Below the pieces are notes generated by a model. It made no database searches, was not told the DNA's origin, and saw nothing but the letters and a program-made list of their open reading frames with translations. A stretch of 64,000 nucleotides of DNA from an uncultured Eubacteriales bacterium (GTDB lineage: Bacteria > Bacillota > Clostridia > Christensenellales > QALW01). The stretch spans positions 11,711-75,710 of the forward strand of contig URIR01000003.1 in assembly GCA_900547955.1 (NCBI GenBank), in the 5' to 3' direction. The translations under genes and the position numbers were made by a program. Below, one piece after another: positions 1-28,322 of the stretch (position 1 is its first letter; each line of letters begins with the position of its first letter).

Positions 1-1426
1 TTATGACCGTGGATTCTTCCTTAATTATATCCATAACCTTCTGTTCGTTGGCAAGCACCTTCTGGCAGTAGGCTATAAAGCGGCGCTTTTCCTCCAATTC
101 CTCGGTCAGGCGGGATAATTCCAGACCAGTCAAGCGGTGCAGACGCATATCCAGTATACTTTTTGCCTGTTCATTTGAAAATTCCAGTTCGTCTACCAGC
201 CGCGTCCGGGCTATTTCGTAATTCTGGCTGGAACGGATTAAGGCTATAACCTGGTCTATTATGTCCAGCGCTTTTATAAGGCCTTCTAAAATGTGCGCGC
301 GGGCCAGGGCTTTATCCAAATCGTACTGGGTGCGGCGGCGGATAACCTCTTTCTGGTGTTCAAGGTAATAATAGAGCATCTGTTTAAGGTTGAGTATTCT
401 GGGCTCGCCGTCTACCAGCGCCAGCATAATAGCGCCGAAGGTTTCCTGGAGCTGGGTATGCTTATAGAGATAATTGAGCACTACGGTAGGATTGACGTCC
501 TTTTTCAGCTCCATAACTATGCGCATGCCGTCCTTATTGGATTCATCCCTCAGGGCGCTGAGTCCGTCAAAGCGCTTTTCCTTATACAGCTCGGCAATCT
601 TTTCAACTACCCGAGCCTTATTGACCTGATAGGGCAGCTCGCGTATTATTATGCGCGCGCGGTCGGCGGAGATTTGCTCTATTTCATGCTTGGCTCGAAC
701 CACTATGCGGCCTCGGCCGGTCAGATAGGTTTCCCGTATGCCGGCTAGTCCCAATATGCTTCCGCCGGTGGGAAAATCAGGGCCGGTTATATGCTCCATC
801 AGCTCTTCTACGGTTATATCCGGGTTATCTATAAGCGCTATAAGGCCTTTAATGGTTTCGCGCAGGTTATGCGGGGGAATATTTGTAGCCATGCCTACGG
901 CTATGCCGTCAGAGCCGTTCACTAAAAGATTGGGGAAGCGGGAGGGCAGCACCTTGGGCTGAAGCTCTGTTTCGTCGAAGTTGGGATAAAAATCCACAGT
1001 TTCCTTATCGATATCCGCCAGCATTTCGGCTGAAATCTTAGAAAGCTTAGCTTCGGTGTAGCGGGAGGCTGCCGGCGGGTCGCCGTCTACCGTGCCGAAA
1101 TTGCCCTGGCCCTGAACAAGCATATAGCGTATGGAAAAATCCTGGGCCAGACGAGCCAGCGCGTCGTATATGGAGCTGTCGCCGTGGGGATGATATTTAC
1201 CCATAACGTCGCCGACGATACGCGCGCTTTTGCGGGTGGGCTTATCGTTATACAGGCCCATTTCGTGCATGGAATAGAGTATTCGCCTGTGTACAGGCTT
1301 AAGACCGTCCCTTACGTCGGGCAGGGCGCGGCTTATATTGACTGCCATGGCGTAGGATATAAAGGATTTTTTTATCTCGTCCTCAATATCTACGTTAATT
1401 GTACGATTATGCAGATTATTCTCCAA
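1..1426 (-). CDS. gyrA: DNA gyrase subunit A, 5' part (gene runs off the left edge)
   Basis: The minus-strand frame is open from TTG at 1426 to the window edge, with GGAGGA about 8 nt upstream at 1434-1439. The translation [58 protein letters not shown]...[30 protein letters not shown]...[10 protein letters not shown] matches the conserved GyrA N-terminus. It is absent from the ORF track because it is truncated. Confidence 0.93.
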
Positions 1427-1498
1427 TTTAATATCCTCCCGGTGTTTTGCTTTAAGTTCGTATATCGCAGAAGCAAAAAAGCCTCTTTAACTATTTGA

Positions 1499-1650
1499 AG
1501 CCGCGGTCGCGCGCAGGGGCGCGGGCGGGTGTGATATGTATGGGCGGCGCGCGGGCGGTTTAGTCCGCGCGGGCCCAGTCCCCGCCCGCAGGGCGGGGAC
1601 TCTTTAGAGGGCGGGGCGCCCCCTTTTTTCTTTTAATGCTGGCGCCTATG
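1499..1650. repeat. GC-rich palindromic spacer between gyrB and gyrA
   Basis: Perfect hairpin gtccccgccc-gca-gggcggggac at 1578-1600. It is immediately followed by the motif ctctttagagggcggggcgccccc (1600-1623) and a T-run. gyrB and gyrA are usually closely spaced; here the spacer is 270 bp. Confidence 0.7.
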
Positions 1651-1696
1651 CCATAGTGAAATTTATTTTCCGGCACGCGGAGCGCTGCATATACGG

Positions 1697-3604
1697 TCAG
1701 ATATCAAGGTCGGCTACAAGCAGAGCGTTCTGCTCTATAAATTCGCGCCGCGGCTCTACCTGGTCTCCCATCAGTATGGTAAATATCTGGTCGGCCGCCA
1801 TAGCGTCGTCTAATGTCACCTTAAGCAGCGTTCTGGTTGCGGGATTCATGGTGGTTTCCCAAAGCTGCTCTGCGTTCATTTCGCCCAATCCCTTATAGCG
1901 CTGCACCTCGTAATTCTGTCTGTCTATGGATTCAAGATATTGGTTCAGCTCTGTGTCATTGTAAAAATAGCTTATTTGCTTTGTGCGGGTCAGCGTCACT
2001 TTGAAGAGCGGCGGCTGGGCAATGTATACATAACCCTCCTCTATAAGCTTGGGCATATGCCGGAAAAAGAAGGTTAAAAGCAGGGTGCGTATATGGCTTC
2101 CGTCCACATCGGCGTCCGTCATGCATATTATCTTATGATAGCGCAGCTTTTCAGCATTGAACTCTACGTCTATGCCGGCGCCGAATGCGGTTATCATGGC
2201 CCGTATTTCGGCATTTTGAAGCATCTTGTCCAGCCGGGTGCGCTCTACGTTTAATATTTTGCCGCGCAGGGGAAGTATGGCCTGGAATTTGCTGTCGCGG
2301 CCCTGCTTTGCGCTTCCGCCCGCGCTGTCCCCCTCTACTATGAATATTTCGCAGTTTTCTGGATGGTTGTCCGAGCAGTCTGCCAGCTTGCCGGGCAGCG
2401 CGTTGGATTCCAGCACGTTTTTGCGCCGGGTAAGCTCTCTCGCCTTGCGCGCGGCCTCCCGCGCTCTGTTGGCCGTCAGGCATTTGTCTATTATGGCCCG
2501 CGCTTCATCCGGATGCTCTTCCAAAAATGCGTCCAGCGTGCTGCCCACCACGTTATCTACCAGCGAACGGAATTCCGAATTGCCCAGCTTGGTTTTAGTC
2601 TGTCCTTCAAACTGCGGCTCCTCCAATTTAACGCTTATAACCGCTACCAGCCCTTCGCGCACATCCTCGCCCGACAGGGAAGCCTCGTTGCTTTTTAGCA
2701 TATGGTGCCGCTTAGCGTAGTCGTTGACCACTCTAGTCAAGGCCGTCTTAAAGCCCTGAAGATGAGTGCCTCCCTCGTGAGTAGCTATATTGTTTGCGTA
2801 GGTATATATTAATTCATTATAGTTGTCGTTGTACTGCATGGCCACTTCCACTATGGAGGCGCCCTTGTCTCCTTCCATATAAAGCGGCTCGGGAGTCAGT
2901 GCATTCTTGTTCTTATTTAAATATTTAACAAATTCTATTATGCCGCCCTCATAATGAAATTCATCCTGGCGCCCTTCGCCGCGTTCATCCTTAATGCGTA
3001 TGCGTATGCCTTTATTCAAAAAGGCCAGCTCGCGCAGCCGGCTGCGTATTGTCTCGTAATTGAATTCTACTGTTTCAAATATCTCGCTGTCCGGCCGGAA
3101 ACGCTCATAGGTGCCCGTGCTTTGACATTCACCTATCACGGTAAGCTCATTAATGGGGTCTCCCCGGCGGTAATCCTGGGAGTATATTTTGCCGTTCCGG
3201 CTTATCTCCACATGCAGCTCCTCGCTCAGGGCGTTGACTACGCTCATGCCTACGCCGTGCAGGCCGCCTGAAACCTTATAACCGCCGCCGCCGAATTTAC
3301 CGCCCGCGTGCAGGATGGTCATGGCTACCTCTACGGCGGGCTTATGGTATTTTTCGTGCATATCTACCGGTATGCCGCGGCCGTTGTCCCGCACGCTTAC
3401 CGTTCCGTCTGCGTGCAGAATAACCTCTATGGTATCGCAGTAGCCTGCCAGCGCTTCGTCTATGCTGTTGTCCACCAGCTCGGTGACGAGGTGATGCAGG
3501 CCTCTTTCGTCAGTAGAGCCTATATACATTCCCGGCCTGCGGCGTACTGCCTCCAGCCCTTCCAGCACCTGAATTTGAGAAGCATCGTAATTGTTTTGCT
3601 GCAT
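1697..3604 (-). CDS. gyrB: DNA gyrase subunit B
   Basis: 635-aa ORF with the N-terminal ATPase signature [25 protein letters not shown], the Toprim [14 protein letters not shown] motif and the C-terminal [15 protein letters not shown]. Confidence 0.98.
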
Positions 3605-3641: not shown

Positions 3642-3887
3642 TTACATTCCCGCCCGCTGAATAATGGTCTGCGCGGTTATGGGGGAAAGATAAAAGACGT
3701 ATCCCCGCTTATCGGCCGTCAGTATTCCGCATTTATAAGGAGGCGGGCCTATTTCTATCAGAAAGCCCTCCTCCCTGGAAATCTTTATAAAGTCTTGGGT
3801 ATCTTCAGTCAGCTCACCGTTCAGCTCAAGCACGGCTACGATTTTTTTTTGAAGCACGCTGACGTCTCCGCCCAGATGGACAAGCAT
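3642..3887 (-). CDS. DUF370 / RemB-like small protein
   Basis: 81 aa. The [11 protein letters not shown]...[13 protein letters not shown] pattern and the position directly upstream of gyrB are typical of the Firmicutes DUF370 gene. Confidence 0.8.
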
Positions 3888-4293
3888 ACGCTATTCCTTT
3901 CCCGGCTTAAACGCCGGATTATTAAAGCAAATTGAAAAAAGCAGTTGAAAGGCTGAACCGTTAAAAAACAGCAACCTTATTATATTTTTTATTATAGCAT
4001 ATTTTCATGCTTCTGTCTTGTGATTTTTGAAAAAACCCATGTTAAATATGGCGTAAAAGTCATTTTAAGCACTCAGACCCTTTTTAAGCATGAGCGCAAA
4101 TACTCCACCGTATGCCAAAGAGGAAAAAACGCCTGAGGGGCATATGCGCGGCATTGGGAGGGGCGGAGGAAGGAAGCTTTTGTATTGTAAAACAAAACGG
4201 ACGAAGAGACATATCGGTACGAAATAGGCGAACGATATATGCGTATAGTCAAAGAGCGGTAAAGAAAGCCGCGTTGCCGCGGACGCTCCCCAT

Positions 4294-4330
4294 ATTAATA
4301 AAAGGACGGCTGCGCCGTCCTTTTATTAAT
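4294..4330. terminator. Bidirectional intrinsic terminator downstream of pepF
   Basis: Perfect 16-bp stem attaataaaaggacgg / ccgtccttttattaat with loop ctgcg. The GC core is flanked by an A4 tract and a T4 tract. Confidence 0.6.
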
Positions 4331-4342
4331 ACAGGGGAGCCG

Positions 4343-4387
4343 AAGGGGGCGGCCGGGGCACAACGCGCCCCGACTCGCCCCCTTTTT
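4343..4387. repeat. GC-rich nested hairpin
   Basis: Outer stem aagggggcg (4343-4351) pairs with cgccccctt (4376-4384). It encloses cggggc...gccccg and is followed by T5. Confidence 0.5.
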
Positions 4388-4424
4388 GCTGTGCTTCGCC
4401 CAAACGCTCGAGGCTTAAAGCGGC

Positions 4425-6143
4425 TTAGGGAATCAGCTGGGCGTTGCGCCTGAGCAGCTCCATATACGAAGGGCCTACAATTTGTCTGAGCGCGCCTTCC
4501 TTAAAGGGCGAATCCAGCCCCATTTCCTCAAGCAGCTGAGGATAGGTGAACTGCGCGCCCTTTTGGACCAGCTTCATATATGTCTCCAGTCCCGCATTAT
4601 AATCCTCCCGCATTATATTGAGCAGCATGAACGCCGCAGACTGAGCCAGGCAGTAATCTATATAATAGAAGGGGTGCATGTAGATATGCAGCTGCCGCTG
4701 CCACCAGCCGCCCTTTGCGAAATAGCATATATCGCCGTAATCTATATCGGGACGGTAGGCGCTTTCCAGCTTCAGCCATTCCTCATGCCGCTCCTGTGGA
4801 GTCAGCTCAGGATTGTCGTAAACTATGTGCTGGAATCTGTCCACCATGCAGCCGTAGGGCAGGAAGATTATTGCGTCTGCAAGATGCTGATAGATGAATT
4901 TATCCTTTTTCTCCCCGAAAAACAGTCCCATATAGGGGTAAGTCATAAATTCCATGCCCATGGAATGAATTTCGGCTATATCGTAGGAGGGCTCTTCCTG
5001 CTCGATATATTTGACCTTTCGAAGGGATATATAGCTGTTAAGGGCATGCCCGCATTCGTGGGTGAGCACCTCTACGTCTCCTGCCGTGCCGTTGAAATTG
5101 GCAAAAACAAAGGGCGCCATAAAGTCGGGGATGCTGGTGCAGTAGCCTCCGCTGGCCTTGCCGTCCCTGCTCAGAACGTCAAACAGCCCGTTGGAGAGCA
5201 TAAATTCTATAAATTCAGCCGTGAGGGGAGAAAGCTCGGTATACATTTTCCGGCCCTTCTCGAATATTTCCTCAGGGGTTCCCTGAGGGCGGGGGTTGCC
5301 CTCCTTAAAGCTCAGGGAGCGGTCCCATATCATTGCGTCCTCTATGCCGTTGCGGTCGTGCTGAAGCTTTATAAGATGGGTAGCCAGGGGCACTATCTCT
5401 CTGCGTACCTGCTCGCAAAAGGCTTCGGTTTCCTTCCGGCCGTAGTCGGCCCGTTTAAGGCGGCAGTAGGCCATGTCGGTAAAGCTGTCAAAACCCAGCT
5501 TTTTGGCCATGCGGGTGCGGGTTTTCACCAGCTTGTCAAATATTTCGTCCAGTTTTGCGCCGTTTTCTTCCATGAATTTGCTTTCTGCTTCCCATGCGCG
5601 CCGGCGTATTTCCCTGTCCGGGTTTTGTTTAAAGGGTGTGAGCCGGCTTAAATTGACCGTTTGCCCGTCAAAGGGAATCTGAGCCGAGGCTATGAGCCTT
5701 TGATATTCGCTCTGAAGCCGGTTCTCTTCAGCCATATCTTCGGCAATTTCGGGAGAAAACGCCTTTTGGGCCAGCCGTGCGTTAAGAAAATAGGTTTCTC
5801 CCAGTTCTCTGCGAGCCAGCTCCTGAAATGGAGAATTCATTACTGCGCGGCTGAGGTCGGTGGAAAGCTGCTCCGCCGAGGGCATGTTCTGGTCGTAATA
5901 GTCGTTTTCCGCGCTGTAGAATTCGTCCTGGGTATTTATAGTGTGACGGATATAGCAGATATTGTACATGGTAGATAATCGGCGCTTAAAATGGTCCGCC
6001 TGCTTGAGCAGCTCCAGAAATTCCTCGGGGCTTTGCGCGGAACAAAGCTTTTCAGGGATGGAGGAGATTTCGGGCGGTATGGGCGTAAGAGGCACTCTTT
6101 GATATTGATAATCGTCAAATTTCATTGGGTTAATCCTTTCCAT
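4425..6143 (-). CDS. pepF: Oligoendopeptidase F family (M3B) zinc metallopeptidase
   Basis: 572-aa ORF with an HExxH zinc site (LTHECGHALNSY). Length and overall pattern fit M3B oligoendopeptidases. Confidence 0.88.
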   Translation of the reverse strand: MERINPMKFDDYQYQRVPLTPIPPEISSIPEKLCSAQSPEEFLELLKQADHFKRRLSTMYNICYIRHTINTQDEFYSAENDYYDQNMPSAEQLSTDLSRAVMNSPFQELARRELGETYFLNARLAQKAFSPEIAEDMAEENRLQSEYQRLIASAQIPFDGQTVNLSRLTPFKQNPDREIRRRAWEAESKFMEENGAKLDEIFDKLVKTRTRMAKKLGFDSFTDMAYCRLKRADYGRKETEAFCEQVRREIVPLATHLIKLQHDRNGIEDAMIWDRSLSFKEGNPRPQGTPEEIFEKGRKMYTELSPLTAEFIEFMLSNGLFDVLSRDGKASGGYCTSIPDFMAPFVFANFNGTAGDVEVLTHECGHALNSYISLRKVKYIEQEEPSYDIAEIHSMGMEFMTYPYMGLFFGEKKDKFIYQHLADAIIFLPYGCMVDRFQHIVYDNPELTPQERHEEWLKLESAYRPDIDYGDICYFAKGGWWQRQLHIYMHPFYYIDYCLAQSAAFMLLNIMREDYNAGLETYMKLVQKGAQFTYPQLLEEMGLDSPFKEGALRQIVGPSYMELLRRNAQLIP

Positions 6144-6162
6144 GCGCCAAATGGCGCGCCAT

Positions 6163-6247
6163 AGATAATATAATCAAAAGGGCAATGCGTTTTTAAAAGG
6201 ATATTGTTTTGTTTGTCCTGGGACGCATTGTATTTTGATTTTATTGA
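6163..6247. mobile_element. Miniature (85 bp) derivative of MITE family 1, TA-flanked
   Basis: Termini gataatataatcaaaagggcaatgcg and cgcattgtattttgattttattgat are inverted repeats related to the ends of the 276-284 bp copies. A TA dinucleotide lies on both sides (6161-6162 and 6248-6249). Confidence 0.55.
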
Positions 6248-6334
6248 TTAAATGATATAGTATTATATATTATATGTGTATGCAATAATTATATCTGGAT
6301 AAAAATTAACCAATTATTAACATTTGAGCGGGCG

Positions 6335-6426
6335 GGGGCCGGCGTTTGGCAGGCGCCGCAGGCGCCTGCCTGGGCCGGGCGCTGCCGCGCCCGGCCTGCG
6401 GCCGTACGGCCGCAAACGCCGGCCCC
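6335..6426. repeat. GC-rich cloverleaf palindrome (four-way junction), member 1
   Basis: Outer stem ggggccggcgttt (6335-6347) pairs with aaacgccggcccc (6414-6426). It encloses three perfect hairpins: ggcaggcgcc-gca-ggcgcctgcc (6348-6370), ggccgggcgc-tgcc-gcgcccggcc (6373-6396) and tgcggccg-ta-cggccgca (6397-6414). Confidence 0.85.
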
Positions 6427-6502
6427 GCAGAATAAAGCCGGGAAGAACGCTCAAAGATATAGCCCTGCTAGAAAGCGCAAAGCGGGCGGGATTATATAAT
6501 AA

Positions 6503-6594
6503 GGCGCCCCTGCCGCCGCGCAGCGTGCGGCGGCAGGGGCGCCCGGGCGCGCGTAAAACGCGCGCCCTCCTTTAAAGGGCGGGGCGTCCCCGCG
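6503..6594. repeat. Two perfect GC hairpins plus the CCTTTAAAGGGCGGGGCG motif
   Basis: A 17-bp stem ggcgcccctgccgccgc / gcggcggcaggggcgcc at 6503-6543, a 9-bp stem gggcgcgcg-taaaa-cgcgcgccc at 6545-6567, and the motif at 6565-6591. Confidence 0.8.
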
Positions 6595-6739: not shown

Positions 6740-6923
6740 AAAAAAGCCGCAAAACGCGCCGAATGCGGCAAAACGGTATGAAGCGGGAGGTTGCCGGAAT
6801 AATCCGGGTAATTTCCGCGGACAATTGTCCGATAATCGGACGACAGGCCAAATGGCCGCTTTAAAAATTTAAAAGCGGCACACACGGAAACGTGTATTTG
6901 AGCTTACAAGGAGGTTTATTTTA

Positions 6924-7232
6924 ATGGCAAGTCAGAAGATCAGAATCAATCTTAAGTCGTATGACCACAATCTGGTGGACCAGACAGCGGCCAGGATAGT
7001 GGAGACCGCCAACAGGACAGGCGCAACTGTTTCAGGTCCCATACCGCTGCCTACAGAAAAAGAAGTAGTTACTATCCTGCGCTCCCCTCATAAATATAAG
7101 GACAGCCGGGAGCAGTTTGAAATGCGTACCCATAAGCGTCTCATCGACATCTATAACGCCGGCAGCAAGACGGTCGAAGCGCTTACAAAGCTTGATCCTC
7201 CCGCAGGCGTGGATATCAAGATAAAGCTCTAA
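6924..7232 (+). CDS. rpsJ: 30S ribosomal protein S10
   Basis: The 102-aa translation ([17 protein letters not shown]...) matches uS10. An AAGGAGG RBS is present and it is the first gene of the conserved S10 order. Confidence 0.98.
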
Positions 7233-7250
7233 GGGCGGAGGTGACGGAAT

Positions 7251-7883
7251 ATGAAAAAAGCTATATTGGGAAAAAAGCTGGGCATGACCCAGATATTTAA
7301 AGAGGACGGCACGGTAGTTCCCGTTACTGTCATCCAGGCGGGGCCGTGTACGGTAATTCAAAAGAAAACTGTTGAAAACGACGGCTATGACGCCTTGAAG
7401 GTAGGCTTCGGCGAGATACGCGAAAAGTTAGTCAATAAGCCGGACGCCGGACAGTTCAAAAAAGCAGGCGTGCCCGCTATGCGCTATGTTAGGGAGCTTC
7501 GCCTGGACGACTGCTCGGGCTATGAAATAGGACAGGCCATTACCTGCGACGTTTTTGCTCAGGGCGACCGCGTGGACGTTACCGCCCGCAGCAAGGGCCA
7601 CGGCTTCTCGGGCGTTATTCAGCGCTGGAACCAGCATACCGGCCCTATGGCTCACGGCTCGGGCTATCACCGCGGCGTAGGCTCCATGGGCGCCAATTCT
7701 TCTCCCAGCAGGGTGTTTAAGAATAAGCATATGCCTGGACATTGGGGAAACGAGCGGGTGACGATACTCAATCTTGAAGTGGCCCGCGTGGACGCTGAAA
7801 GAGGCGTTATACTGCTTAAGGGCGCCGTGCCCGGAGCAGACGGCGCGTTAGTAACCATTCGCCAGTCGGTCAAGAGCAAATAA
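7251..7883 (+). CDS. rplC: 50S ribosomal protein L3
   Basis: 210 aa; [16 protein letters not shown]... matches uL3; conserved order. Confidence 0.98.
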
Positions 7884-7900
7884 GCAAGGAGGTTATTTAA

Positions 7901-8524
7901 ATGCCTAAAGTAGCTGTCTACAATCTCGAAGGCTCGCAGACGGGCGAGCTTACGTTGAGCGATGAGATATTCGCTTCAGATATAAATAAGGCGGTCATAC
8001 ATTCAGTTGTGCGCGCGCAGCTGGCCAATAAGCGCCAGGGCACAAAGAGCACCCTGACCCGCACCGAAGTCCGCGGCGGCGGCAAGAAGCCTTACCGCCA
8101 GAAGGGAACGGGCCGCGCCCGCCAGGGCTCTACGCGCGCTCCCCAGTTCACAAAGGGCGGCGTAGTTTTTGCGCCCAAGCCCCGTTCCTTCAGAATAAAT
8201 GTTCCCAAGAAGGTTAAGCGCCTCGCGCTTAAGGGCGTGCTTACCGATAAGGTGGTAAACGATTCCTTTATAGTGGTTGAGGACCTGAATCTGGCCGCTC
8301 CCAAGACTAAGGAGATGGTTAAGGTGCTGGCTAACCTCAAAATGGAGGGCAAGACCCTTATCGTGCTGAGCGCTCCCGACGAGACGGTTCAGCGCGCCGC
8401 CGGAAATCTTCCCACGGCCGCCGTTACATTGGTAAACACCCTCAACGTGGTGGATATGCTCAAGGCGGATAAGCTGCTCCTTACAAAGGAAGCGGTTGAG
8501 CGGATTGAGGAGGTGTACGCGTAA
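7901..8524 (+). CDS. rplD: 50S ribosomal protein L4
   Basis: 207 aa; uL4 pattern ([19 protein letters not shown]); conserved order. Confidence 0.98.
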
Positions 8525-8820
8525 TGAAATTTTACGAGGATATTATAAGAAAGCCGGTGCTTTCTGAAAAAACCTACGATATGATAGGGGATAAGCGCTA
8601 TGTTTTCATAGTGGACCGGCGCGCCAATAAGGTGGAGATTAAAAAAGCGGTGGAGAGCATTTTCGACGTGCAGGTAGAAAAGGTGAACACCGTTACCACC
8701 ACCGGCAAGATTAAGCGCATGGGCCGCTCGGAGGGCAGAACCCCCACCACCAAAAAGGCCTATGTAATTTTGAAAAAAGATTCCAAGCCCATTGCGTTCT
8801 TTGAAGGCATGGCTGATTAA
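8524..8820 (+). CDS. rplW: 50S ribosomal protein L23
   Basis: 98 aa; TAATG overlap with rplD; uL23 pattern. Confidence 0.97.
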   Translation: MKFYEDIIRKPVLSEKTYDMIGDKRYVFIVDRRANKVEIKKAVESIFDVQVEKVNTVTTTGKIKRMGRSEGRTPTTKKAYVILKKDSKPIAFFEGMAD

Positions 8821-8841
8821 AAGCAGAGGAGGAATAGCAAA

Positions 8842-9672: not shown

Positions 9673-9687
9673 GGAAGGAGTCTAAGC

Positions 9688-9966: not shown

Positions 9967-9981
9967 GGAGGAGCATTGAAA

Positions 9982-10368: not shown

Positions 10369-10381
10369 AGGAGGCATACAG

Positions 10382-11050: not shown

Positions 11051-11053
11051 GTC

Positions 11054-11703: not shown

Positions 11704-11722
11704 GAAGGGAGGAGCTTAAAAA

Positions 11723-19517: not shown

Positions 19518-19534
19518 GGCTTGCGGAGGTTGCT

Positions 19535-19828
19535 TTGAAGGAAGAGAATTTTCAGATTGGCCGGCTGGTGCGTTCCCGCCAGGGCCGCGACGCCGGCAGG
19601 TATTTTGTAATAACCGGCCTGCCTGAAGAGAATTACGCATATATTTCGGACGGGGCCGTGCGCAGGCTAAGCGCGCCCAAAAAGAAGAAATTAAAGCACC
19701 TGGAGCTTTGCCCGGAGGAAATACCGGCCGTAAGGGCCAAGCTGGAAGCAGGCAGCAAGGTTTTTGACAGCGAGCTGAAGAGCGCTATAGAAGCTCTGGG
19801 CTTTAATATCAAACAAAAACAGGAGTGA
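19535..19828 (+). CDS. KOW-domain RNA-binding protein
   Basis: 97 aa with a TTG start. It occupies the map-infA slot, as in many Clostridia, and has the [21 protein letters not shown]-like pattern. Confidence 0.8.
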
Positions 19829-19832
19829 GCCG

Positions 19833-20054
19833 ATGGCAAAGGAAGATGTAATGGAACTTGAGGGCGTAGTGGAGGAAACCATGCGCAACGCGGTATTTCA
19901 AGTAAGGCTGGAAAACGGGCACTGCATACAGGCCCATCTGGCTGGGAAGCTGCGCATGCATAATATACAGGTGCTGCCCGGAGACCATGTGACGGTGGAG
20001 ATATCTCCCTACGACCTTACAAAGGGCCGTATCATATGGAGGAGCAAGGGCTGA
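19833..20054 (+). CDS. infA: Translation initiation factor IF-1
   Basis: 73 aa; [15 protein letters not shown]...S1-like fold pattern. Confidence 0.98.
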
Positions 20055-20120
20055 GCGGAGATACCGCTTTATTAAACAGGCTGCCGCGTTTCGGGCAGGA
20101 ATTTTAAGGAGGAAACAAAA

Positions 20121-20237
20121 ATGAAGGTAAGGCCAAGCGTTAAGCCAATGTGCGACAAATGCAAGATAATAAAGAGAAAAGGCAAGGTTATGGTAATATG
20201 CCCTGCCGATAAGAGCCATAAGCAGAGACAGGGCTGA
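20121..20237 (+). CDS. rpmJ: 50S ribosomal protein L36
   Basis: Not in the ORF track (38 aa). ATG at 20121 follows AAGGAGGAAAC. The translation [38 protein letters not shown] is bL36. Confidence 0.96.
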
Positions 20238-21243
20238 AGAAGCTTTCCTGTTTGGGAAATTGCTGAGGGAATGCTCGTTTTAACGGCTTAAGGCGGATAA
20301 AACGGCCGGCGGTTTGGGTAGGCTGAGAGATTAGACTGCCGGACGGCAGGCTGAAGGATTAGGCCGCCGGGCGGCAGAGTCAACCCTTCCTATGGGTTTA
20401 AGCCCCGCCGTGCCCAATCGGGCGGGGCGGGATGAGCCAGGCAGAGTTAGGCGAGCGGGCCGGGCTGGGGACTGCGCTTAGGCGCAGGGCTTAAACGGCT
20501 CATACTTAGGCGGCCGCGCTTCTTCGCATGGCGGAAAAGCGTATGGCGCGCTGCTCGGGATTTTGCCTTAACGCGGCTTGGTTTGCCGGTGCGCGGCGGG
20601 TCTGAGCTTAAGCTTTGTTTTCGCCGCAGAAGGATAAAGCTGCGTTTTGCGCTCATGCTAGAGCGCCGGGCTGCCGCGGTCAGCGGATATTCTGCGTTAA
20701 AGCGCTGCGCTGCGATATGGCAGGCCGAGGCTTTGAGTTAATACCCTTTGACGGCTCCGATGAGGCGAAGCATGGGTTTTGGCTAAAGGGCTTTGTTGAC
20801 GCCGATACGGCGGGGTTTGCGCTTTGAGCAAAAGGTTTTGCCGGTCACGGCATGGCGAGGCCCTGCGTTTTGAGTTAATACGCAGCGTTTTGCGGCTTTG
20901 GCGCCGGCGCGCAGGTGCTGAATGAGCGCGGTTGATATGCGTTGAAGCGCCGGATTTAAGTCGTATTTCGGATTGCAGGCGCTTATACGGGCACTTGTTC
21001 TAAGCGTGCCGCAGGGATACGAGCGGTTTAACGAGCTGAGCAAAACCAAGAGCGCCGTTTCGGAATAATGGGCGCTTAAGGCTTGAGCCGGCAGGAGCGG
21101 CCGGCTGGGGTAAAAGGCAGGAAAATTCCCCGGAAACAGAAAATCAGGTCCCCCGCGGGCGCGGCTGAGCGGGTATAATTACCCCTTGCCCGCATAGGGA
21201 TTTTATATATTTTTCTTAAAAAATTTACGGAGGTGGAACCTAA
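20238..21243. repeat. About 1-kb GC-rich degenerate repeat and hairpin block between rpmJ and rpsM
   Basis: I see no credible ORF here. TTA(A/G)G-centred units recur every 30-45 bp. Small perfect hairpins are present (ctgcgc-ttag-gcgcag, agcttaagct, agccggc-aggagcg-gccggct). A decayed cloverleaf lies at 20396-20496. Confidence 0.75.
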
Positions 21244-21615
21244 ATGGCACGTATTGCCGGAATAGATCTTCCCAGAGAAAAGCGTATAGAAGTGGGAATC
21301 AGAAGCATTTATGGCATAGGTCCTGCTCGTTCTAAGGAGATTCTCGCCGCGACAGGGGTTAATCCTGATACGCGCGTGCGCGACCTTACCGACGACGAGG
21401 TAAACAGGCTCAGAGACTATATAGACAAGAATATCAAGGTGGAGGGCGACCTTCGCCGCGAGGTATCTCTTAATATCAAGCGGCTTATTGAGATAGGCTG
21501 CTACCGCGGTATTCGTCACCGCAAGGGCCTGCCCGTGCGCGGACAGAGCACCAAGCAGAACGCGCGCACCCGCAAAGGTCCCAAGAAGATTGTTGCGGGC
21601 AAGAAGAAAAAGTAA
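21244..21615 (+). CDS. rpsM: 30S ribosomal protein S13
   Basis: 123 aa; [14 protein letters not shown]... matches uS13. Confidence 0.98.
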
Positions 21616-21631
21616 GGGGAGGTTTGAATAA

Positions 21632-22033
21632 ATGGCAAAGCCTACTAATATTAAGAGAGGCGTGCGCCGCCGCGTTGAAAAAAAGAATATCGAGCGGGGT
21701 GCGGCTCATATCTGCTCGTCCTTTAATAATACTATAGTAACTATAACTGATACTGCCGGAAACGCCATAAGCTGGGCGAGCGCAGGAGGCCTGGGCTTCC
21801 GCGGCTCCAAGAAGAGCACTCCCTTCGCTGCGCAGATGGCGTCCGAGACGGCTGCTAAAGCGGCTATGGAGCATGGGCTCAGAACAGTAGAGGTATATGT
21901 TAAGGGCCCCGGTTCGGGACGCGAGGCCGCAATAAGAGCGCTGCAGGCTGCAGGACTGGAAATCAGCATGATTAAGGATGTCACACCCATCCCCCATAAC
22001 GGCTGCCGTCCTCCCAAGCGCAGAAGAGTATAA
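21632..22033 (+). CDS. rpsK: 30S ribosomal protein S11
   Basis: 133 aa; uS11 pattern. Confidence 0.98.
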
Positions 22034-22053
22034 AGGATAGGAGGATATTAAAT

Positions 22054-22680
22054 ATGGCTAGATATACAGACGCTGTCTGCCGTCAGTGCCGCAGAGAAAA
22101 TCAAAAGCTGTTTCTGAAGGGCAGCCGCTGCTATAGTGAAAAATGCCCCGTTACAAAGCGCGGGACCATACCCGGCCAGCACGGCGCGGGCCGCCGCGGC
22201 AAGGTAGGAGAATACGGCCTCCAGCTCCGTGAGAAGCAGAAGGCTAAGAGAACCTACGGGGTGCTGGAGAGGCAGTTCCGCAAATATTTTGAGATGGCCG
22301 AGCACACCAAGGGAGTTACGGGTGAAAATATGCTGGCGCTGCTTGAATGCAGGTTGGATAACGTAGTTTATCGTCTGGGCTTCGGCGTATCCCGTCCTCA
22401 GGCCCGCCAGGTGGTCAATCACGGCCACATTTTGGTGAACGGCAAGCGTGTGGACATTCCCTCCTATATAGTTAAGGCGGGAGACGTTATAAGCATATGT
22501 CCCAAGAGCGCCGAAAAGGAGCAGTTTAAGGTGCTGCGTGAGGGTACGGGCAGGCTTATCCCTCAATGGCTGAGCCTGGACAGCGCCAATCTTACCGGTA
22601 CGGTGGTCAGCATACCCAAGCGCGAGGAGATAGACCTCCAGATTGCCGAACACCTTATTGTCGAGCTGTACTCTAAATAA
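22054..22680 (+). CDS. rpsD: 30S ribosomal protein S4
   Basis: 208 aa; [15 protein letters not shown]... matches uS4. Confidence 0.98.
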
Positions 22681-22724
22681 TGAGGCATTGCCCTCATCGA
22701 CCATAAAGGAGGGTTCCGTAAAAA

Positions 22725-23672
22725 ATGATAGAAATAGAAAAGCCCATGATAGAATGCAGACAGCTCAGCCCGGACAACCGCTATGCGCAGATTGTAGTAG
22801 AGCCCCTGCAGAGAGGCTTTGGCAATACCATAGGCAACTCTCTTCGCCGTATTTTGCTGTCCTCTCTGCCCGGCGTTGCCGTAACCAGCGTGCGGATAGA
22901 CGGAGTGCTGCATGAATTTTCCACGATAGAAGGCGTTTCGGAGGACGTTACCGAAATAGTGCTCAATATCAAGGGGATTTCAGCGAAAATGCATTCGGAT
23001 ACGCCTGTGACGGCCAGCATACGCGCAAAAGGGCCCTGCGAGGTTACCGCCGGAAGCATAACGGGGGATTCCAGCCTTGAGATTATCAATACCGACCATC
23101 ATATCGCCACGCTGAGCGAAGGGGCGACTCTCAATATGGATTTGGTCTTTGCCAAGGGCATAGGCTATGTGGGAGCGGATAAGAACAAGACGGAGGATAT
23201 GACCATAGATACCATAGCGGTGGATTCCATATATACTCCTATAACCAAGGTGAATTATTCTGTGGAGCCCGCGCGCGTGGGCCGCAGCTCTGATTACGAC
23301 AGGCTGGTTCTGGACGTTTGGACTAACGGCTCCATTAATCCTAAAGAGGCGGTCAGCCTGGCTGCCAAGATATTGAACGATTATCTGGCGCTGTTTATCA
23401 ATCTGGTAGACAACGTAGGCGGCCTGGAGATGATGGTGGAAAAGGAAGAGGAGAAGAAAACCAAGGTTCTGGAAATGACCATAGACGAGCTGGATTTATC
23501 CGTGCGTTCCTATAACTGCCTTAAGCGCGCCGGTATAAACACCGTAGACGAGCTTATACAGCGGGACGAGGTGGATATGATGAAGGTGCGCAACCTGGGC
23601 AGAAAGTCCCTTGAAGAGGTGCGCCAGAGGCTTGCTTCCTTAGGCCTGTCCCTGAAAAAAGGCGACGAATAA
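22725..23672 (+). CDS. rpoA: DNA-directed RNA polymerase subunit alpha
   Basis: 315 aa; N-terminal domain plus the C-terminal [16 protein letters not shown] helix-hairpin-helix. Confidence 0.98.
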
Positions 23673-23756
23673 TAGAAACGGGCTCGCCGTCTTGCCGGCA
23701 CAAGGCGGCAGCGAGCATTATGAATATGCAATTATGCCGGAGAAAAGGAGCAGAAA

Positions 23757-24269
23757 ATGCCTGGTAACAGAAAGCTTAACCGTCCCAGCGACCAGAGGAA
23801 CGCAGTACTTCGCGGACTGTGTACCGCTCTTATCGCTAATGGACGCATAGAGACCACCGAGGCCCGCGCCAAGGAGGTTCGTAAAATAACCGAGAAGCTG
23901 ATAACCCTTGCTATGCGCGATTATGCCGGCGAGGTAGAAGTGACTAAGCAGGTGCGCAACGAGAAGAAGCAGCTTGTGGACGAGACCTTTAAGACGGATA
24001 CGCCTGCCAAGCTGCATGCCCGCCGTCAGCTTATGGCATATCTTTATAATGTGCCAGAAAAGAGGATGGAAGGGGAGAGCAAGCTGCTTTACAAGCAGAG
24101 GCTCAAGGAAGTCAATAATCCCGTTGTGGAGAAGCTTTTCCGTGAGCTGGCGCCTAAATATGCGCAGCGCAAGGAAGAGAAGGGCACGGGCGGCGGTTAT
24201 ACCCGCATAATTAAAAAAGGTCCTCGCCGCGGCGACGCGGCCGAGATGGTCATTCTCGAGCTTATTTAA
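23757..24269 (+). CDS. rplQ: 50S ribosomal protein L17 (extended, 170 aa)
   Basis: The bL17 core is present ([17 protein letters not shown]..., [19 protein letters not shown]). There are about 50 extra residues in two internal stretches compared with the ~120-aa Bacillus protein. Confidence 0.95.
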
Positions 24270-24307: not shown

Positions 24308-24509
24308 TTTAGGAGCGCCTAAGCAGTTAAAGGGCCAGGGGGGCGGCGCGCCGCCCGGCCGAGCCAAAGGCTCGGCCGGGCCAGGCGGCCCGCATAATCC
24401 GGGGGCTTTTAGCCCCCGGATTATGCGGGCCGCCTGCTTTTGGCGCCCGTAAGGGCGCCAAAAGGGCGCGCCGCCCCCCTGGCCCTTTAACTGCTTAGGC
24501 GCTCCTAAA
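24308..24509. repeat. GC-rich cloverleaf palindrome (four-way junction), large member
   Basis: Perfect 45-bp outer arms at 24308-24352 and 24465-24509. They enclose three abutting perfect hairpins at 24353-24381, 24382-24436 and 24437-24464, with no unpaired junction nucleotide. Confidence 0.9.
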
Positions 24510-24528
24510 TTTATTTATCAGAATTTAT

Positions 24529-24948
24529 CTATACCCAAAAGAAGCCGGACTGCATGCTGCAGATCTGGCTTTTTCCTGTATTGGGATATAATTTGCGCTT
24601 CCTCTTTTGAAAGCTCTGTCTCCAAAAACGCGTTCCCATATCAGGACGAATATCCAGCAGTTCATTTGGATTCACTTTAAGAACGTTGCAGATAGAAGCG
24701 AGAATGTCTACGTCGGGGCGGTTAAGGCCCTGCTCCCAGTTGGATACGCGCGCATTGCTCACACTAATAAGCTTGGCAAATTTGATACCGTTGCGTATAA
24801 AGCGGGCATATTTCCGGCGGTATTTAAAAAATGCTTGATGGCCGGCGCACGATATATTCGGAGCAGTATAAGGCAATTTGCCAGGCGCTGGGGGTGGGGC
24901 TGAAACATTTTTAAATATTAAATTGGCATAGCCGGCTTCAAAAAGCAA
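24529..24948 (-). CDS. XRE-family helix-turn-helix protein (start uncertain, possibly decayed)
   Basis: The central stretch IKFAKLISVSNARVSNWEQGLNRPDVDILASICNVLKVNPNELL fits the Cro/C1 HTH pattern. The roughly 40-aa N-terminal extension has no recognisable feature. Confidence 0.5.
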   Translation of the reverse strand: MLFEAGYANLIFKNVSAPPPAPGKLPYTAPNISCAGHQAFFKYRRKYARFIRNGIKFAKLISVSNARVSNWEQGLNRPDVDILASICNVLKVNPNELLDIRPDMGTRFWRQSFQKRKRKLYPNTGKSQICSMQSGFFWV

Positions 24949-24975
24949 GCAAACGGATAAAGAATTTCTTGATGA

Positions 24976-26362
24976 GGATTACAGAGCCAGGGCGACCTTG
25001 TCTCTGCCCGCAGCCAAGGAGAAACTGGCGAGCGACATAATGTTTGTATATCCACAAGCGCGGATGTAGAGGAGGTGATGGTTGAAATGCTTTTTAATCT
25101 TAAGGCGCACGCTGAAAATTCGCAGGCCAGCGTTAAGGTCGGCGTCGTTATATTTAATAAGCAGGCTAACGTAACCTGTGTCCTTACCGATATTCAGACG
25201 GGCTATGAGGATATTTTAGAGGGCATCAGGACGGATATAAGCAGCGGCACCAATACTCATGCCGGTATCTTAGCGGGCAAAAAAATGCTGGATGAGGATT
25301 GCGCGGTGCCGGCCAGGCGAAAATATCTGATTTTTATAAGCGATGCGATAACATATATATAACGAAGAGCCTGCTGCTATTCCATCGCAGTTTGCGGAAA
25401 ACGCCGTATTTGCTGGTCCGGACGCATGGGCTAATAAATATCAGAATAATAATCCTCCAAGCGACTGTAATGAATTTTTGACTTCCGTCGGCGTTCAGAT
25501 TGAGGCGGATGGAGATACCTTTGAAGCAAACTACGGAGCAAAGGAGCCGTTTATCCCCTATTCAGAACGCAGCGGGCATGCTATGACGGTAGCTAAGGCG
25601 CTGTATAATACGGCCATGGCTTATAAAAGCGCCCAGGATGCGGGATATACCTGCTATGCCATAACAGCTTCCGCGTCGGCAGCCGCCTCCGAGCAATATT
25701 CATGGGGCCCTTCCTTTATGAATTATCTGGCTCAGGGAGAGAAGGTATCCTTTGACGGAATATACAATGAGGCAATATATCTTTTGGATGCGGGCAGCAG
25801 GGTTATTGACGTAATAGGCAGCGGGTAAGGCCAGTATAGGGACGGAGAGCTTATTGATAAGGGATATAATTTTGTAAACAGTCCGGAGACGCTGGAATTG
25901 AAGGTAGGGGAAGATAAATACGCGCTGACCCGGCTGGAGAATAAGGTATATGCCTTTGGAGAGGAGAACGGACAAAATCAATATCCCTTCATACTGCGTT
26001 ATTATCCCGAGGGGACTGCCTCAGAGCCGCGCGAGCATTTAGTTTGGGAAATTAACGCGCCGGTGGATATAACCAGACGGGCGAGCCTTACATATACTGT
26101 GGAGCTTGCCGACCCGCAGTCTGAGGCAGGGCTGTACACGCAGCTTTATACCAATGAGGAGGCAATTATATATCCTGTGGATACATGCGGCAGCGAAGGC
26201 GAGGGAGAATATTTTGAAAGACTTGCGGCAGCTTACAGAATTTTGCCTATGGAGGAGGAGCACCCGACGGGAGACGCCGGAGTTCTTCTGCTATGCTGCA
26301 TATTGGGCGTATGCGTCTCAGCCGTAATTTTGCTTAAAGTCTTAAAGGTCAGAAACGAATAG
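24976..26362 (+). pseudogene. Remnant of a vWA-domain, sortase-anchored surface protein
   Basis: Three ORF fragments (25075-25362, 25478-25828, 25898-26362) read through as one protein if two lesions are repaired. One is a frameshift at the (AT)4A tract at 25353-25361; the other is an in-frame TAA at 25826-25828. vWA motifs are present (SGTNTHAGI, LIFISDA). The C-terminus is HPTGD followed by a TM segment and a basic tail. The signal peptide and the DxSxS motif are missing. Confidence 0.75.
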
Positions 26363-26459
26363 AGGCCGGGGAGCAATTAGAAAACATTTAGTGCAGGAAA
26401 AACTCCTGGTCAGGGCGGGCCGCACGGCTATACTCCTGGATAAAGGCTGACGCTGCCAG

Positions 26460-26501
26460 AATAATGGACCGTCCATAATAGGATGGTCCATTATTTTTTT
26501 T
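26460..26501 (+). terminator. Intrinsic terminator after the vWA remnant
   Basis: Stem aataatggacc / ggtccattatt followed by a T-run. Confidence 0.65.
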
Positions 26502-26509
26502 GCGCCGGC

Positions 26510-26996
26510 GGAACCGTTCCGAGAGACTGATGAAATTGTACTGAGCTGGAAAAAGAGAAGAAAAGGGAAGCGGAACGTGAGAAAAATTTGTCTAGTATAT
26601 GAACAATTATAAGCATACTATATTTGGATATAACCATTTATTCCCTGTAAAAACCTGTGTAAAAAATCGTGAAAAGCAATAAAATTTAAAAAAAATCAGA
26701 AAAAAACGCAAAAATCTATTGCTTATCCACAGGTTTTTTGGTATCATTTATATTGCCGTCAGCGATTAGAGTAGCGCGGCGGCGATTTATAGTTCGGAGC
26801 TTAAAATGCTTTAAAAATATGCAAATCGCCCTTATATGGGCGTTTTTAGCCATTTAGGCCAATGAATAAATCTAGGGATTGTGCCTTATTTTAATAGGTC
26901 ATACACCATATAGAGTTATCAACAGCCTGTGGAAAAGTTTTGGACTATAAATTGTACTTTTTACTCGGTTAATATTTTTCTGGGGGTTGTTGAAGC
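26510..26996. promoter_or_regulatory. oriC-like AT-rich spacer with DnaA boxes upstream of dnaA
   Basis: One perfect DnaA box TTATCCACA at 26723-26731. TTATCAACA at 26916-26924 faces TGTGGAAAA at 26928-26936 (complement TTTTCCACA). Long A/T tracts lie around 26660-26715. Confidence 0.6.
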
Positions 26997-28322
26997 ATGC
27001 AGGATGCAAGTGAAATCTGGGCAAAGGTATCCGCCGTATTAAAAGAGACAAAGGAGATATCCAGCTTGGCCTATACTACCTGGCTTGCGTCTATAAAGCC
27101 GGCGCTTTTTCGGAACGACTGCCTATATCTGGTAGTACCCTCGGCGCTGCACCGAAATCATATTGTAGGAAACAGCAATTATAAAATATATATCAATACT
27201 GCGCTTAATATGGTCACGGGCAAGGAATGCTCTGTTGAGCTGCTGCTGGAGGGAGAAGTCAAGGATGTTATGCAGAGCGCCGTCCAGCCCAATAAATGGC
27301 CTATGCTCAACGACAAATATACCTTTGAAACCTTTGTTATAGGTCCCAGCAATCAGTTTGCCCAGGCGGCGGCTTTAAGCGTAGCCGAAGCGCCTGCTAC
27401 GCAGAATAACCCGCTTTTTATATACGGCGGCGTAGGGCTGGGCAAGACCCATTTAATGCATGCTATAGGCAACTATGTTTTGGAGCAGAATCCGGCTGTG
27501 CGCGTTTTATATACCACCTGTGAGAAATATACAAACGAATATATAGATTCCATACCTAAGAACCGGGTTGCAGCCTTTAGAGAGCATTACAGGAACAACG
27601 TGGATATTCTAATGATAGACGATATCCAGTTCCTCACCCGCAAGGAGCGTATTCAGGAGGAATTTTTCCATAATATTAACGAATTAGTATCGGCGAACAA
27701 GCAGATAATTATAACCAGCGACCGGCCGCCGCGGGATATAGCCACGCTGGAGGATAGGCTGCGCTCCCGCTTTGAGGGCGGATTGATAGTGGATATAACG
27801 CCGCCTGATTTGGAGACAAGAGTTGCTATTCTGCGCCTTAAGGCCGAGGCCTTTGGGGCGGTATTGGATAACGAGCTGCTGTTTTACATAGCCGAGCGGG
27901 CAAGCGACAACGTGCGCGAATTGGAAGGCTCTCTTAAGCGGGTTATAGCTTATTCCAGCATAATGGGGCAGGATATAACCTTTGAGCTGGTTTCGGAGGC
28001 TTTAAAGGACTATAACGCCGTACAGCAGCGCACCTTGACCGTGGATAAAATCATGGAGACGGTAGCGGAGTATTACGGCGTGGAGGTAGAGGAATTGGTG
28101 GGCAAAAAAAGAGACGCGGCTATAGTTATGCCCAGGCATATAGCTATGTATCTCTGCCGTGAGCATACCGACCTGTCTTTTCCCCGCATAGGAGACGAAT
28201 TTGGGGGCCGGGACCATTCTACCGTTATAAACGGCATAGGCAAGATACATCAGGCGCTTAAGACGGACCCTAAGGTAAAAACCTATGTGGAGGACATAGA
28301 GCGCCGGCTTCAAGGGGTTTAA
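26997..28322 (+). CDS. dnaA: Chromosomal replication initiator protein DnaA
   Basis: 441 aa; AAA+ Walker A GGVGLGKTHL; C-terminal DNA-binding domain DHSTVINGIGKI. Confidence 0.98.
   Translation: MQDASEIWAKVSAVLKETKEISSLAYTTWLASIKPALFRNDCLYLVVPSALHRNHIVGNSNYKIYINTALNMVTGKECSVELLLEGEVKDVMQSAVQPNKWPMLNDKYTFETFVIGPSNQFAQAAALSVAEAPATQNNPLFIYGGVGLGKTHLMHAIGNYVLEQNPAVRVLYTTCEKYTNEYIDSIPKNRVAAFREHYRNNVDILMIDDIQFLTRKERIQEEFFHNINELVSANKQIIITSDRPPRDIATLEDRLRSRFEGGLIVDITPPDLETRVAILRLKAEAFGAVLDNELLFYIAERASDNVRELEGSLKRVIAYSSIMGQDITFELVSEALKDYNAVQQRTLTVDKIMETVAEYYGVEVEELVGKKRDAAIVMPRHIAMYLCREHTDLSFPRIGDEFGGRDHSTVINGIGKIHQALKTDPKVKTYVEDIERRLQGV

Follow-up and report, generated by a model that had tools for sequence, protein, structure and literature searches.

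In Firmicutes such as B. subtilis and C. difficile, the genes around the replication origin (oriC) form a canonical block, which runs jag-yidC-rnpA-rpmH, oriC1, dnaA, oriC2, dnaN-yaaA-recF-remB-gyrB-gyrA. In E. coli, dnaA, dnaN, recF and gyrB are found together, the dnaA promoter is autoregulated and contains a DnaA box, and oriC is in the mnmG/mioC spacer, with dnaA about 42 kb away from it. The leading strand is generally G-rich. Here we describe the dnaA locus in a 64,000-nucleotide stretch of DNA (referred to as the window), in which dnaA follows the S10-spc-alpha ribosomal protein supercluster. Strand composition identifies the plus strand as leading between about -2.5 kb and +72 kb in window coordinates, and with modest confidence we favour the reading that dnaA is an orphan, autoregulated gene, with the origin elsewhere, at least 35 kb upstream of it, and the ribosomal protein cluster co-directional with replication. 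In PolC-type Firmicutes, which is the type of this lineage, the linkage between dnaA and oriC is normally conserved, and clostridial origins have 9-19 DnaA boxes in oriC1 and 5-9 in oriC2, counted as TTWTNCACA with at most one mismatch (PMC7561715).

Gene order and strand composition

The map was built from a listing of open reading frames (ORFs) together with Pfam scans, while Rfam was used for RNA elements; the features are collected in Table 1. The span examined runs from -8.3 to +73 kb, about 82 kb of one replicon, of which the 8.3 kb to the left of the window was recovered from assembly L001 (99.9% identical to the window across 13.6 kb). The protein DnaA is 99% identical to that of L007, a metagenome-assembled genome (MAG) from chicken which is the GTDB representative of Candidatus Neochristensenella gallicola, and 98% identical to that of a sister species, L008. 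L007 is syntenic with the window from secY to glnA, with a tetranucleotide correlation of 0.98. On these similarities, the host is a Candidatus Neochristensenella genome (Christensenellales, chicken gut).

From left to right, the locus consists of gyrA-gyrB-remB-pepF on the minus strand, the 17.3-kb S10-spc-alpha supercluster on the plus strand, and dnaA, also on the plus strand. The original prediction gave this order and the position of the 17-kb cluster correctly, and its estimate of about 23 kb between remB-gyrB-gyrA and dnaA, on opposite strands, also holds (23.1 kb from remB to dnaA). What it omitted is pepF, which lies between remB and the S10 cluster at the site that recF, dnaN and dnaA have in the canonical order. 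The absence of dnaN and recF that it reported is confirmed, in that DnaN and RecF probes from canonical loci gave no tblastn match at E<=1 from -8.3 to +73 kb. The same is true of rpmH and rnpA, which were not found upstream of dnaA or anywhere else in this span; they are at a separate locus, L050. The genes flanking dnaA are rplQ upstream and a gene of unassigned family downstream. The position of remB before gyrB is identical in a canonical relative (L052), and the supercluster has the canonical order from rpsJ to rplQ, including rpsE, rpmD, rplO, secY, adk, map, infA, rpmJ, rpsM, rpsK, rpsD and rpoA, and an S10 leader. Its one deviation is that it ends at rplQ, without ecfA, ecfA', ecfT and truA. 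The organisation is thus genuinely non-canonical for Firmicutes, and it is conserved across the genus: the same junctions are present in at least 10 independent assemblies and in two sister species.

From a minimum within the window at 4109, cumulative GC skew climbs without reversal to 64 kb and forms no V at dnaA (26.8 kb); further left, in the 8.3 kb outside the window, positive skew returns. None of the 35 intergenic spacers has a plus-strand GC skew below -0.01, and the pooled intergenic skew is +0.143 (standard error, SE, 0.019) to the left of dnaA and +0.132 (SE 0.015) to the right.

Raw skew at four-fold degenerate sites was dropped as a reporter of replication. In relatives L009-L012, C-ending codons dominate these sites regardless of replication, and for this reason a gene-orientation term was included and a test confined to intergenic DNA was used in addition. 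The four-fold model was applied to G and C counts from 75 curated genes between -8.3 and +72 kb, and strand polarity, gene orientation and high expression each had a term in it. A single polarity was better than a change of sign at 26.8 kb by 37.6 log-likelihood units, and the polarity term was positive on both sides of dnaA, with logit values of 0.24 on the left and 0.47 on the right (skews of about 0.12 and 0.23). Read in the plus-strand orientation, the minus-strand genes to the left of dnaA have four-fold skews of +0.39 (gyrA), +0.28 (a HAD hydrolase) and +0.18 (pepF), a lagging-type composition which is the same as that of the minus-strand genes to the right of dnaA. Four-fold AT skew has T>A on the plus strand, again on both sides.

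Because the plus strand is G-rich throughout, we infer that the replication fork enters from the left and moves co-directionally with the S10-spc-alpha cluster, dnaA and rpsF-ssb-rpsR. The last of these shares its strand with the S10 cluster and is a second operon of high expression that is normally close to the origin. Head-on transcription would be confined to the gyrBA-pepF block and two minus-strand blocks to the right of dnaA. Since the gyrBA-pepF block has a composition of lagging-strand type, the origin would lie to the left of about -8 kb. The suggestion that the active origin is at 26.5-27.0 kb, with the cluster meeting the leftward fork head-on, is not supported by these results, as there is no change of sign at dnaA and the plus strand is leading-type on both sides. 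It had been envisaged that GC skew might instead place the origin to the left of 6.9 kb, making the cluster co-directional. Within the 82 kb the cluster is indeed co-directional, although the origin is not placed at 3.9-6.9 kb.

The sign of the skew is informative rather than a constant of the clade, because in the relative L033 it is opposite throughout (intergenic skew -0.12) and in L050, which is from the same organism as the window, the four-fold polarity term is negative, although the intergenic spacers there are near zero (+0.02). The genes of L050 have lagging-type four-fold composition. No switch of gene orientation or skew is present at dnaA in L033, L035 or L012. As a positive control for a flip at the dnaA genes of relatives, L012, L010 and L035 gave a weak flip or none, and in the canonical L052 the effects of gene orientation and side cannot be separated. 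Composition has had substantial time to adjust, because the arrangement predates the split from L007, and four-fold sites differ by 32-43% among the three species that share it (the window, L007 and L008).

The dnaA control region and the position of the origin

The region upstream of dnaA contains one perfect DnaA box (26723), two boxes with one mismatch (26916 and 26928) and two weaker boxes. The DnaA-box region identified here earlier is a modest one, although no better cluster of boxes was found in the 82 kb; under the looser criterion (TTWTNCACA, at most one mismatch) there are six boxes. The 800-bp spacer after dnaA has no box cluster, only four scattered boxes, all mismatched, against a background of 1.1 per 500 bp. 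The DnaA-trio is defined as 3'-[G/A]A[T/A]-5', n>3, following a GC cluster and beside boxes and an AT-rich DNA unwinding element (DUE). In a scan confined to runs of at least five triplets, none was found in either dnaA spacer, and the only two such runs in the 82 kb are at 21601 and 70111.

Alignment of the dnaA upstream region from three Neochristensenella species shows long invariant stretches, in which five box-like sites and an A-rich tract (26680-26720) are conserved. A core, TTGCTTATCCACAGGTTTTTTGnTAT(C/T)AT, is common to these three species and the more distant relatives L035 and L033, where it appears as TTGCTTATCCACAGGTTTTTTGnTATyAT upstream of dnaA despite their different genomic contexts. 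The core is a consensus DnaA box at the -35/spacer position of an extended -10 promoter (TGn followed by TATyAT), and in a simple consensus scan the -35 hexamer falls inside the perfect box. About 95 nt downstream of the core is a hairpin followed by a T-run. Compensatory changes in L007 and L035 preserve the stem of this hairpin, which might function in attenuation or form the 3' end of a small RNA. The head-to-head box pair is conserved in L007, L008 and L035.

This module accompanies dnaA in three contexts: downstream of rplQ in the window, divergent from rnpA in L035, and between topA-trmFO and dnaA-thrS in L033. Such behaviour fits the pattern expected of an autoregulated promoter, and is compatible also with a mini-origin that travels with the gene. 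A consensus box overlaps the core promoter, and the module stays with dnaA whatever its context (window, L007, L008, L035 and L033). The attributes of a bipartite Firmicutes oriC, namely the rnpA-rpmH-dnaA-dnaN context, box clusters in both dnaA spacers and a switch of skew at the locus, are all missing. The boxes are predicted, from their anatomy and by analogy with the dnaA promoters of E. coli and B. subtilis, most likely to serve autorepression by DnaA of its own promoter.

The explanation that we favour is that the ancestral block, rnpA-rpmH followed by dnaA-dnaN-yaaA-recF-remB-gyrB-gyrA, would have been broken by several old rearrangements in this lineage. dnaA would have persisted as an orphan cassette, made up of the gene and about 400 bp of its own control region (an extended -10 promoter whose -35/spacer is overlain by a consensus DnaA box, the leader hairpin and the head-to-head box pair), and now placed directly downstream of the alpha operon (rpoA-rplQ). 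Its DnaA boxes would repress its own promoter. A fork coming from the left would pass S10-spc-alpha, dnaA and rpsF-ssb-rpsR co-directionally, and the active oriC would be, not at 26.5-27.0 kb, but somewhere to the left of about -8 kb.

Several observations weigh against this explanation. The span covers just 82 kb of one replicon and no origin was located in it, while the strongest DnaA-box cluster that it contains is the one upstream of dnaA. About 75 bp there is invariant, which is more conservation than a promoter strictly needs, and the A/T-rich tract could be an unwinding element. The four-fold replication term to the left of dnaA is half that on the right, a difference which could reflect incomplete re-equilibration after rearrangement. 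Codon-usage selection at four-fold sites is strong in this clade, so that the four-fold estimate is model-dependent, although the intergenic result is not. The gene-strand bias implied by this fork direction is weak for a Firmicute, at about 62% in the window and less in L050, which is odd. It is also a general rule, in most bacteria, that oriC adjoins dnaA (PMC6669920).

The same rule speaks for the principal alternative, in which the ~400-bp module is a compact monopartite oriC that moves with dnaA. Replication would then start at 26.6-26.95 kb, and the leftward fork would run head-on into alpha, spc and S10. Also in its favour are the conserved box-like sites and A-rich tract described above and the strength of the box cluster, unmatched in the 82 kb. 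This cluster always accompanies dnaA in relatives, and there is no box cluster at the relocated landmark genes, either in the ecfA/mnmE spacer (L036) or in the upstream spacer of rpmH and the gap downstream of jag (L050). Against it, three independent measures find no change in the sign of the skew, the minus-strand genes gyrA, HAD and pepF have lagging-type four-fold composition, and L033 and L035 are likewise without a switch at dnaA. The boxes are few in comparison with clostridial origins, no DnaA-trio run of at least five was found (only runs of this length being scored), and the perfect box lies within the promoter. Moreover, 17 kb of the most highly expressed genes would be transcribed head-on. 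We consider this alternative unlikely. A head-on clash is in our view unlikely too, an origin at dnaA facing the cluster being the less likely reading and an orphan autoregulated dnaA the more likely one.

A broader possibility, which we regard as rather improbable, is that the origin in this clade is uncoupled from dnaA, dnaN, rpmH and mnmG alike. It would then be either a relocatable unit of dnaA plus a ~400-bp mini-origin, with the supercluster head-on, or an unrecognised type of origin at an unmarked site.

It is very improbable that the origin is in the divergent spacer between gyrBA-remB-pepF and the S10 cluster, at 3.9-4.4 or 6.1-6.9 kb, from where both blocks would be co-directional. 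Gene orientations do diverge there, the cumulative skew has its local minimum at 4109, there is an AT-rich tract at 6160-6330, and remB-gyrBA is normally just downstream of oriC. However, the minimum reflects only a 9-kb island of minus-strand genes, the plus strand is G-rich in every spacer of the block and at the four-fold sites of gyrA, HAD and pepF, a flip at 6.5 or 4.1 kb is worse than a single polarity by about 24 log-likelihood units, and there are only one or two weak DnaA boxes. Origins in the remB-pepF and pepF-S10 spacers were accordingly rejected, on the positive skew further left and the lagging-type minus-strand genes.

Finally, it is so improbable that the assembly is a chimera joined at a palindrome (6.3-6.6 kb or 24.3-24.5 kb) that this can be discounted: several short-read contigs do terminate within the 202-bp perfect palindrome, but both junctions are crossed at >=99% identity by assemblies of different samples and assemblers, the left (gyrA-gyrB-remB-pepF to S10) in six independent assemblies (L001-L006; NCBI, JGI, ENA and Logan) and the right (rplQ to dnaA) in L007 and three further ENA assemblies (L044-L046), a deletion variant (L044-L047) lacks 24512-26509 yet matches the window at 99% identity in rplQ, the palindrome and the dnaA control region, in unchanged order, and a self-complementary palindrome is not enough to create a false join between two different flanks. 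With the junctions spanned independently and the self-complementary sequence being unique, misassembly at 6.2-6.9 or 24.3-26.9 kb is excluded for practical purposes, and the continuity of the contig, which had been questioned, is upheld.

Relatives, palindromes and neighbouring genes

Every relative with a DnaA identity of 57% or more lacks the coupling of dnaA to dnaN. In L035 (75% identity), dnaA faces parAB-noc-gidB-mnmG-mnmE-jag-yidC-rnpA and is not followed by dnaN, and in L033 (68%) both flanks of dnaA are different. In L009-L012 (57%), dnaA faces jag-yidC-rnpA and is followed by a gene for a 709-aa membrane protein and serS, again without dnaN. At 52% identity, L052 (a Clostridia MAG) is fully canonical, with parB-gidB-mnmG-mnmE-jag-yidC-rnpA divergent from dnaA-dnaN-S4-recF-remB-gyrB-gyrA. 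On this gene-order evidence, loss of the dnaA-dnaN linkage is a property of the clade and not of this genome alone, and it would date to between the outgroups with 52% and 57% DnaA identity.

The genes that normally follow rplQ, ecfA-ecfA'-ecfT-truA, are divergent beside mnmE-mnmG in the same organism (L036, 4006-9730), while rpmH-rnpA-yidD-yidC-jag is downstream of a replicative-helicase gene and an ABC-transporter operon (L038; L050, 8080-10783). ENA samples contain long-read contigs of this species of 206 kb (with dnaA) and 374 kb (with jag), for example ERZ28754545 contig_2964. The tetranucleotide match of these separate landmark loci to the window is r=0.955-0.968, compared to 0.97-0.99 for true Neochristensenella loci and 0.56-0.88 for other relatives, and L036 and L050 carry the same palindrome family as the window. 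A shared short repeat, AGTACAATGCG, was also tried as a tag for the organism and was uninformative. A search of all available Neochristensenella DNA by tblastn with two DnaN and two RecF probes found nothing, and a metagenome scan with a DnaN alignment gave 80 loci, none with the tetranucleotide signature of the organism (best correlation 0.71). In the literature searched, no paper contained the terms Christensenellaceae, origin of replication and dnaA together, and Neochristensenella is mentioned in two. An inversion of the ribosomal protein segment alone is not sufficient to explain the gene order, because at least three breakpoints are implied relative to the canonical one.

It had been proposed that two cloverleaf elements bound the ribosomal cluster, compatible with its inversion or transposition. 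Both elements are real, but a third follows dnaA, and the 43 kb of L036 and L050 contains another eight, most of them at the 3' ends of genes or where genes converge. Members of the family are 90-200 bp long. Their long outer stem, whose AT-rich ends are specific to each element, usually encloses three GC hairpins; folding z scores range from -6 to -22, and modules of 14-22 nt are common to the copies. Cloverleaf 1 shares modules of 15-18 nt with elements in L036 and L050, and cloverleaf 2 is retained in strains without the 2 kb that follows it. None of the cloverleaves has an Rfam match, even at permissive thresholds. They are thus a dispersed modular family of intergenic repeats, not inversion scars bracketing the cluster, and with at least three breakpoints the proposed inversion or transposition gives way to more than one event. 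The cloverleaves probably act as strong bidirectional terminators, and may be an undescribed class of REP-like repeat. Hairpin clusters are also found at 6503-6586 and 4288-4390.

Between cloverleaf 2 and the dnaA control region, the segment 24512-26509 varies between strains. It is missing from L044-L047, where both flanks are 99% identical to the window, and is present in the sister species L007 and L008 at 70-80% identity. This 2.0-kb segment looks like a decaying accessory insert beside dnaA. The insertion 3' of dnaA (29124-33808) is present in L044-L047 and absent from L007 and L008, in which an aminotransferase gene comes directly after dnaA. Its 493-aa protein has no Pfam match, and its 940-aa metallophosphoesterase carries an InlB B-repeat-like domain. 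To the right of the 493-aa gene is a 12-kb minus-strand block (metallophosphoesterase, aminotransferase, carB fused to dapF, carA, an ANTAR regulator and glnA), then a 15-kb plus-strand block containing rpsF-ssb-rpsR, and then a minus-strand block to about 72 kb. The carB-dapF fusion (36013-40062, minus strand) is a single ORF of 1349 aa, consisting of a complete CarB and two C-terminal DapF domains, and other strains have the same 1349-aa call.

Two spacers within the supercluster are long, non-coding and kept in L044-L046. That between rpsE and rpmD (519 bp, 15434-15952) contains 3.6 copies of a 44-bp tandem repeat, and that between rpmJ and rpsM (20238-21243) is 1 kb long and G-rich (skew +0.2). 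Imperfect tandem repeats of ~40-43 bp (70-76% matches) are present at 43338-43528, upstream of a GtrII-like gene, and 48460-48645, downstream of rpsR. Inverted-repeat pairs resembling miniature inverted-repeat transposable elements are at 34187-34454, 46855-46961, 52437-52714 and 62019-62266; the arms at 46855/46942 and 52581/52670 are related (...AAAATTTGCG / CGCAAATTTT...). A 1.9-kb ORF-poor, AT-rich stretch at 51.6-53.5 kb, upstream of glutamate-synthase genes, has six loose DnaA-box matches and no change of skew. Permissive Rfam searches of this stretch, the dnaA leader and the intra-operon spacers gave nothing meaningful, and no tRNA genes were found in the window. From about -8300 to -3000 (L001, 16591-21908) is an island of low GC content (39-45%) encoding large SH3/Ricin-lectin surface proteins, and it differs between strains, as in L003. 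Contigs of about 36 kb recur, because many assemblies break off near -11.8 kb and within the palindrome at 24.4 kb.

Table 1. Coordinates of features at the dnaA locus and of related palindromes. Positions are in the window unless a locus is named; aa, amino acids.
Feature	Position	Strand	Details
gyrA, 5' part	1-1426	-	continues beyond the window to about -1075; 833-aa gene call with DNA_topoisoIV/DNA_gyraseA_C domains in L001-L006
gyrB	1697-3604	-	Pfam DNA_gyraseB, Toprim, HATPase_c, DNA_gyraseB_C
remB-like small gene (RemA-like/DUF370), upstream of gyrB	3642-3887	-	Pfam PF04025, E=2.6e-6
pepF-like M3 oligoendopeptidase	4425-6143	-	Pfam Peptidase_M3, E=2e-38; in 6/6 assemblies L001-L006
Cloverleaf 1, GC-rich, outer stem and three hairpins	6332-6428		-92.2 kcal/mol, z=-6.2
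S10-Clostridia ribosomal-protein leader	6770-6843	+	Rfam RF03136, 40 bits, gathering score 35.1
S10-spc-alpha supercluster, rpsJ to rplQ	6924-24269	+	ORFs; Pfam gene calls on the same DNA in L001, L044
Cloverleaf 2, 202 bp, perfect 45-bp outer arms, directly after rplQ	24308-24509		-221.7 kcal/mol, z=-22
Cro/C1-type HTH gene	24529-24948	-	Pfam HTH_3
VWA-domain gene, broken into three ORFs	25075-26362	+	Pfam VWA_2
Conserved dnaA control block	26610-26765	+	two weak DnaA boxes, A-rich tract, perfect box, extended -10 promoter
Perfect DnaA box TTATCCACA	26723-26731	+	within control block
Extended -10 promoter TGGTATCAT	26739-26747	+	7 nt after perfect box
Terminator-like hairpin and T-run in dnaA leader	26827-26850	+	consensus scan
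Head-to-head near-consensus DnaA box pair TTATCAACA gcc TGTGGAAAA	26916-26936		60 bp before dnaA start codon
dnaA, 441 aa, no dnaN after it	26997-28322	+	Pfam Bac_DnaA, Bac_DnaA_C, DnaA_N
Cloverleaf 3, just after dnaA stop codon, three hairpins in outer stem	28417-28504		-86.7 kcal/mol, z=-8.7
Species-specific insertion 3' of dnaA	29124-33808		493-aa protein (+), 940-aa metallophosphoesterase (-)
rpsF-ssb-rpsR operon	47095-48118	+	Pfam Ribosomal_S6, SSB, Ribosomal_S18
L036 cloverleaves	3042-3264, 4728-4949, 11852-11998, 12088-12260, 14123-14357, 15934-16100		palindrome family
L050 cloverleaves	985-1169, 13525-13704		palindrome family

Significance and comparison with known systems

Origin finders and the conventions used for genome 'rotation' presume that the oriC of Firmicutes is next to dnaA and dnaN. 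Estimates of growth rate from metagenomic coverage, for which the position of the origin is needed, rest on this assumption too. In this uncultured clade of gut Clostridia, dnaA is an orphan, its neighbourhood varies by genus, and there is no compositional sign of an origin beside it. Origin calls based on dnaA would be wrong in such genomes. If the origin is indeed elsewhere, the clade would be a natural system in which to study what holds dnaA and oriC together in other Firmicutes, and how DnaA is autoregulated once that linkage has gone. The highly expressed ribosomal operons appear to follow the co-orientation rule.

The cloverleaves are similar to REP/BIME-like families in being GC-rich, very stable, intergenic, mostly at gene 3' ends and dispersed in the genome, with short modules in common. 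They differ in having a long outer stem around three hairpins (a four-way junction) and outer arms that are specific to each element, and no RAYT-type transposase was seen in the loci examined.

Compared to the canonical Firmicutes block, the window retains dnaA, remB, gyrB and gyrA, the remB-gyrB-gyrA sub-operon, and boxes of the TTATCCACA type upstream of dnaA. It differs in that 23 kb separates dnaA from remB-gyrBA, which is on the other strand, that the 82 kb contains no dnaN, yaaA or recF, and that rpmH-rnpA-yidD-yidC-jag is at a separate locus (L050). Downstream of dnaA there is neither a box cluster nor a DnaA-trio/DUE (as scanned for runs of at least five triplets), nor a switch in skew. 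The locus can also be compared with that of E. coli. Here dnaA is alone and the mnmE-mnmG locus is without a box cluster, unlike in E. coli, but in both cases the promoter region of dnaA contains a consensus DnaA box, and dnaA would be away from the origin and co-oriented with replication.

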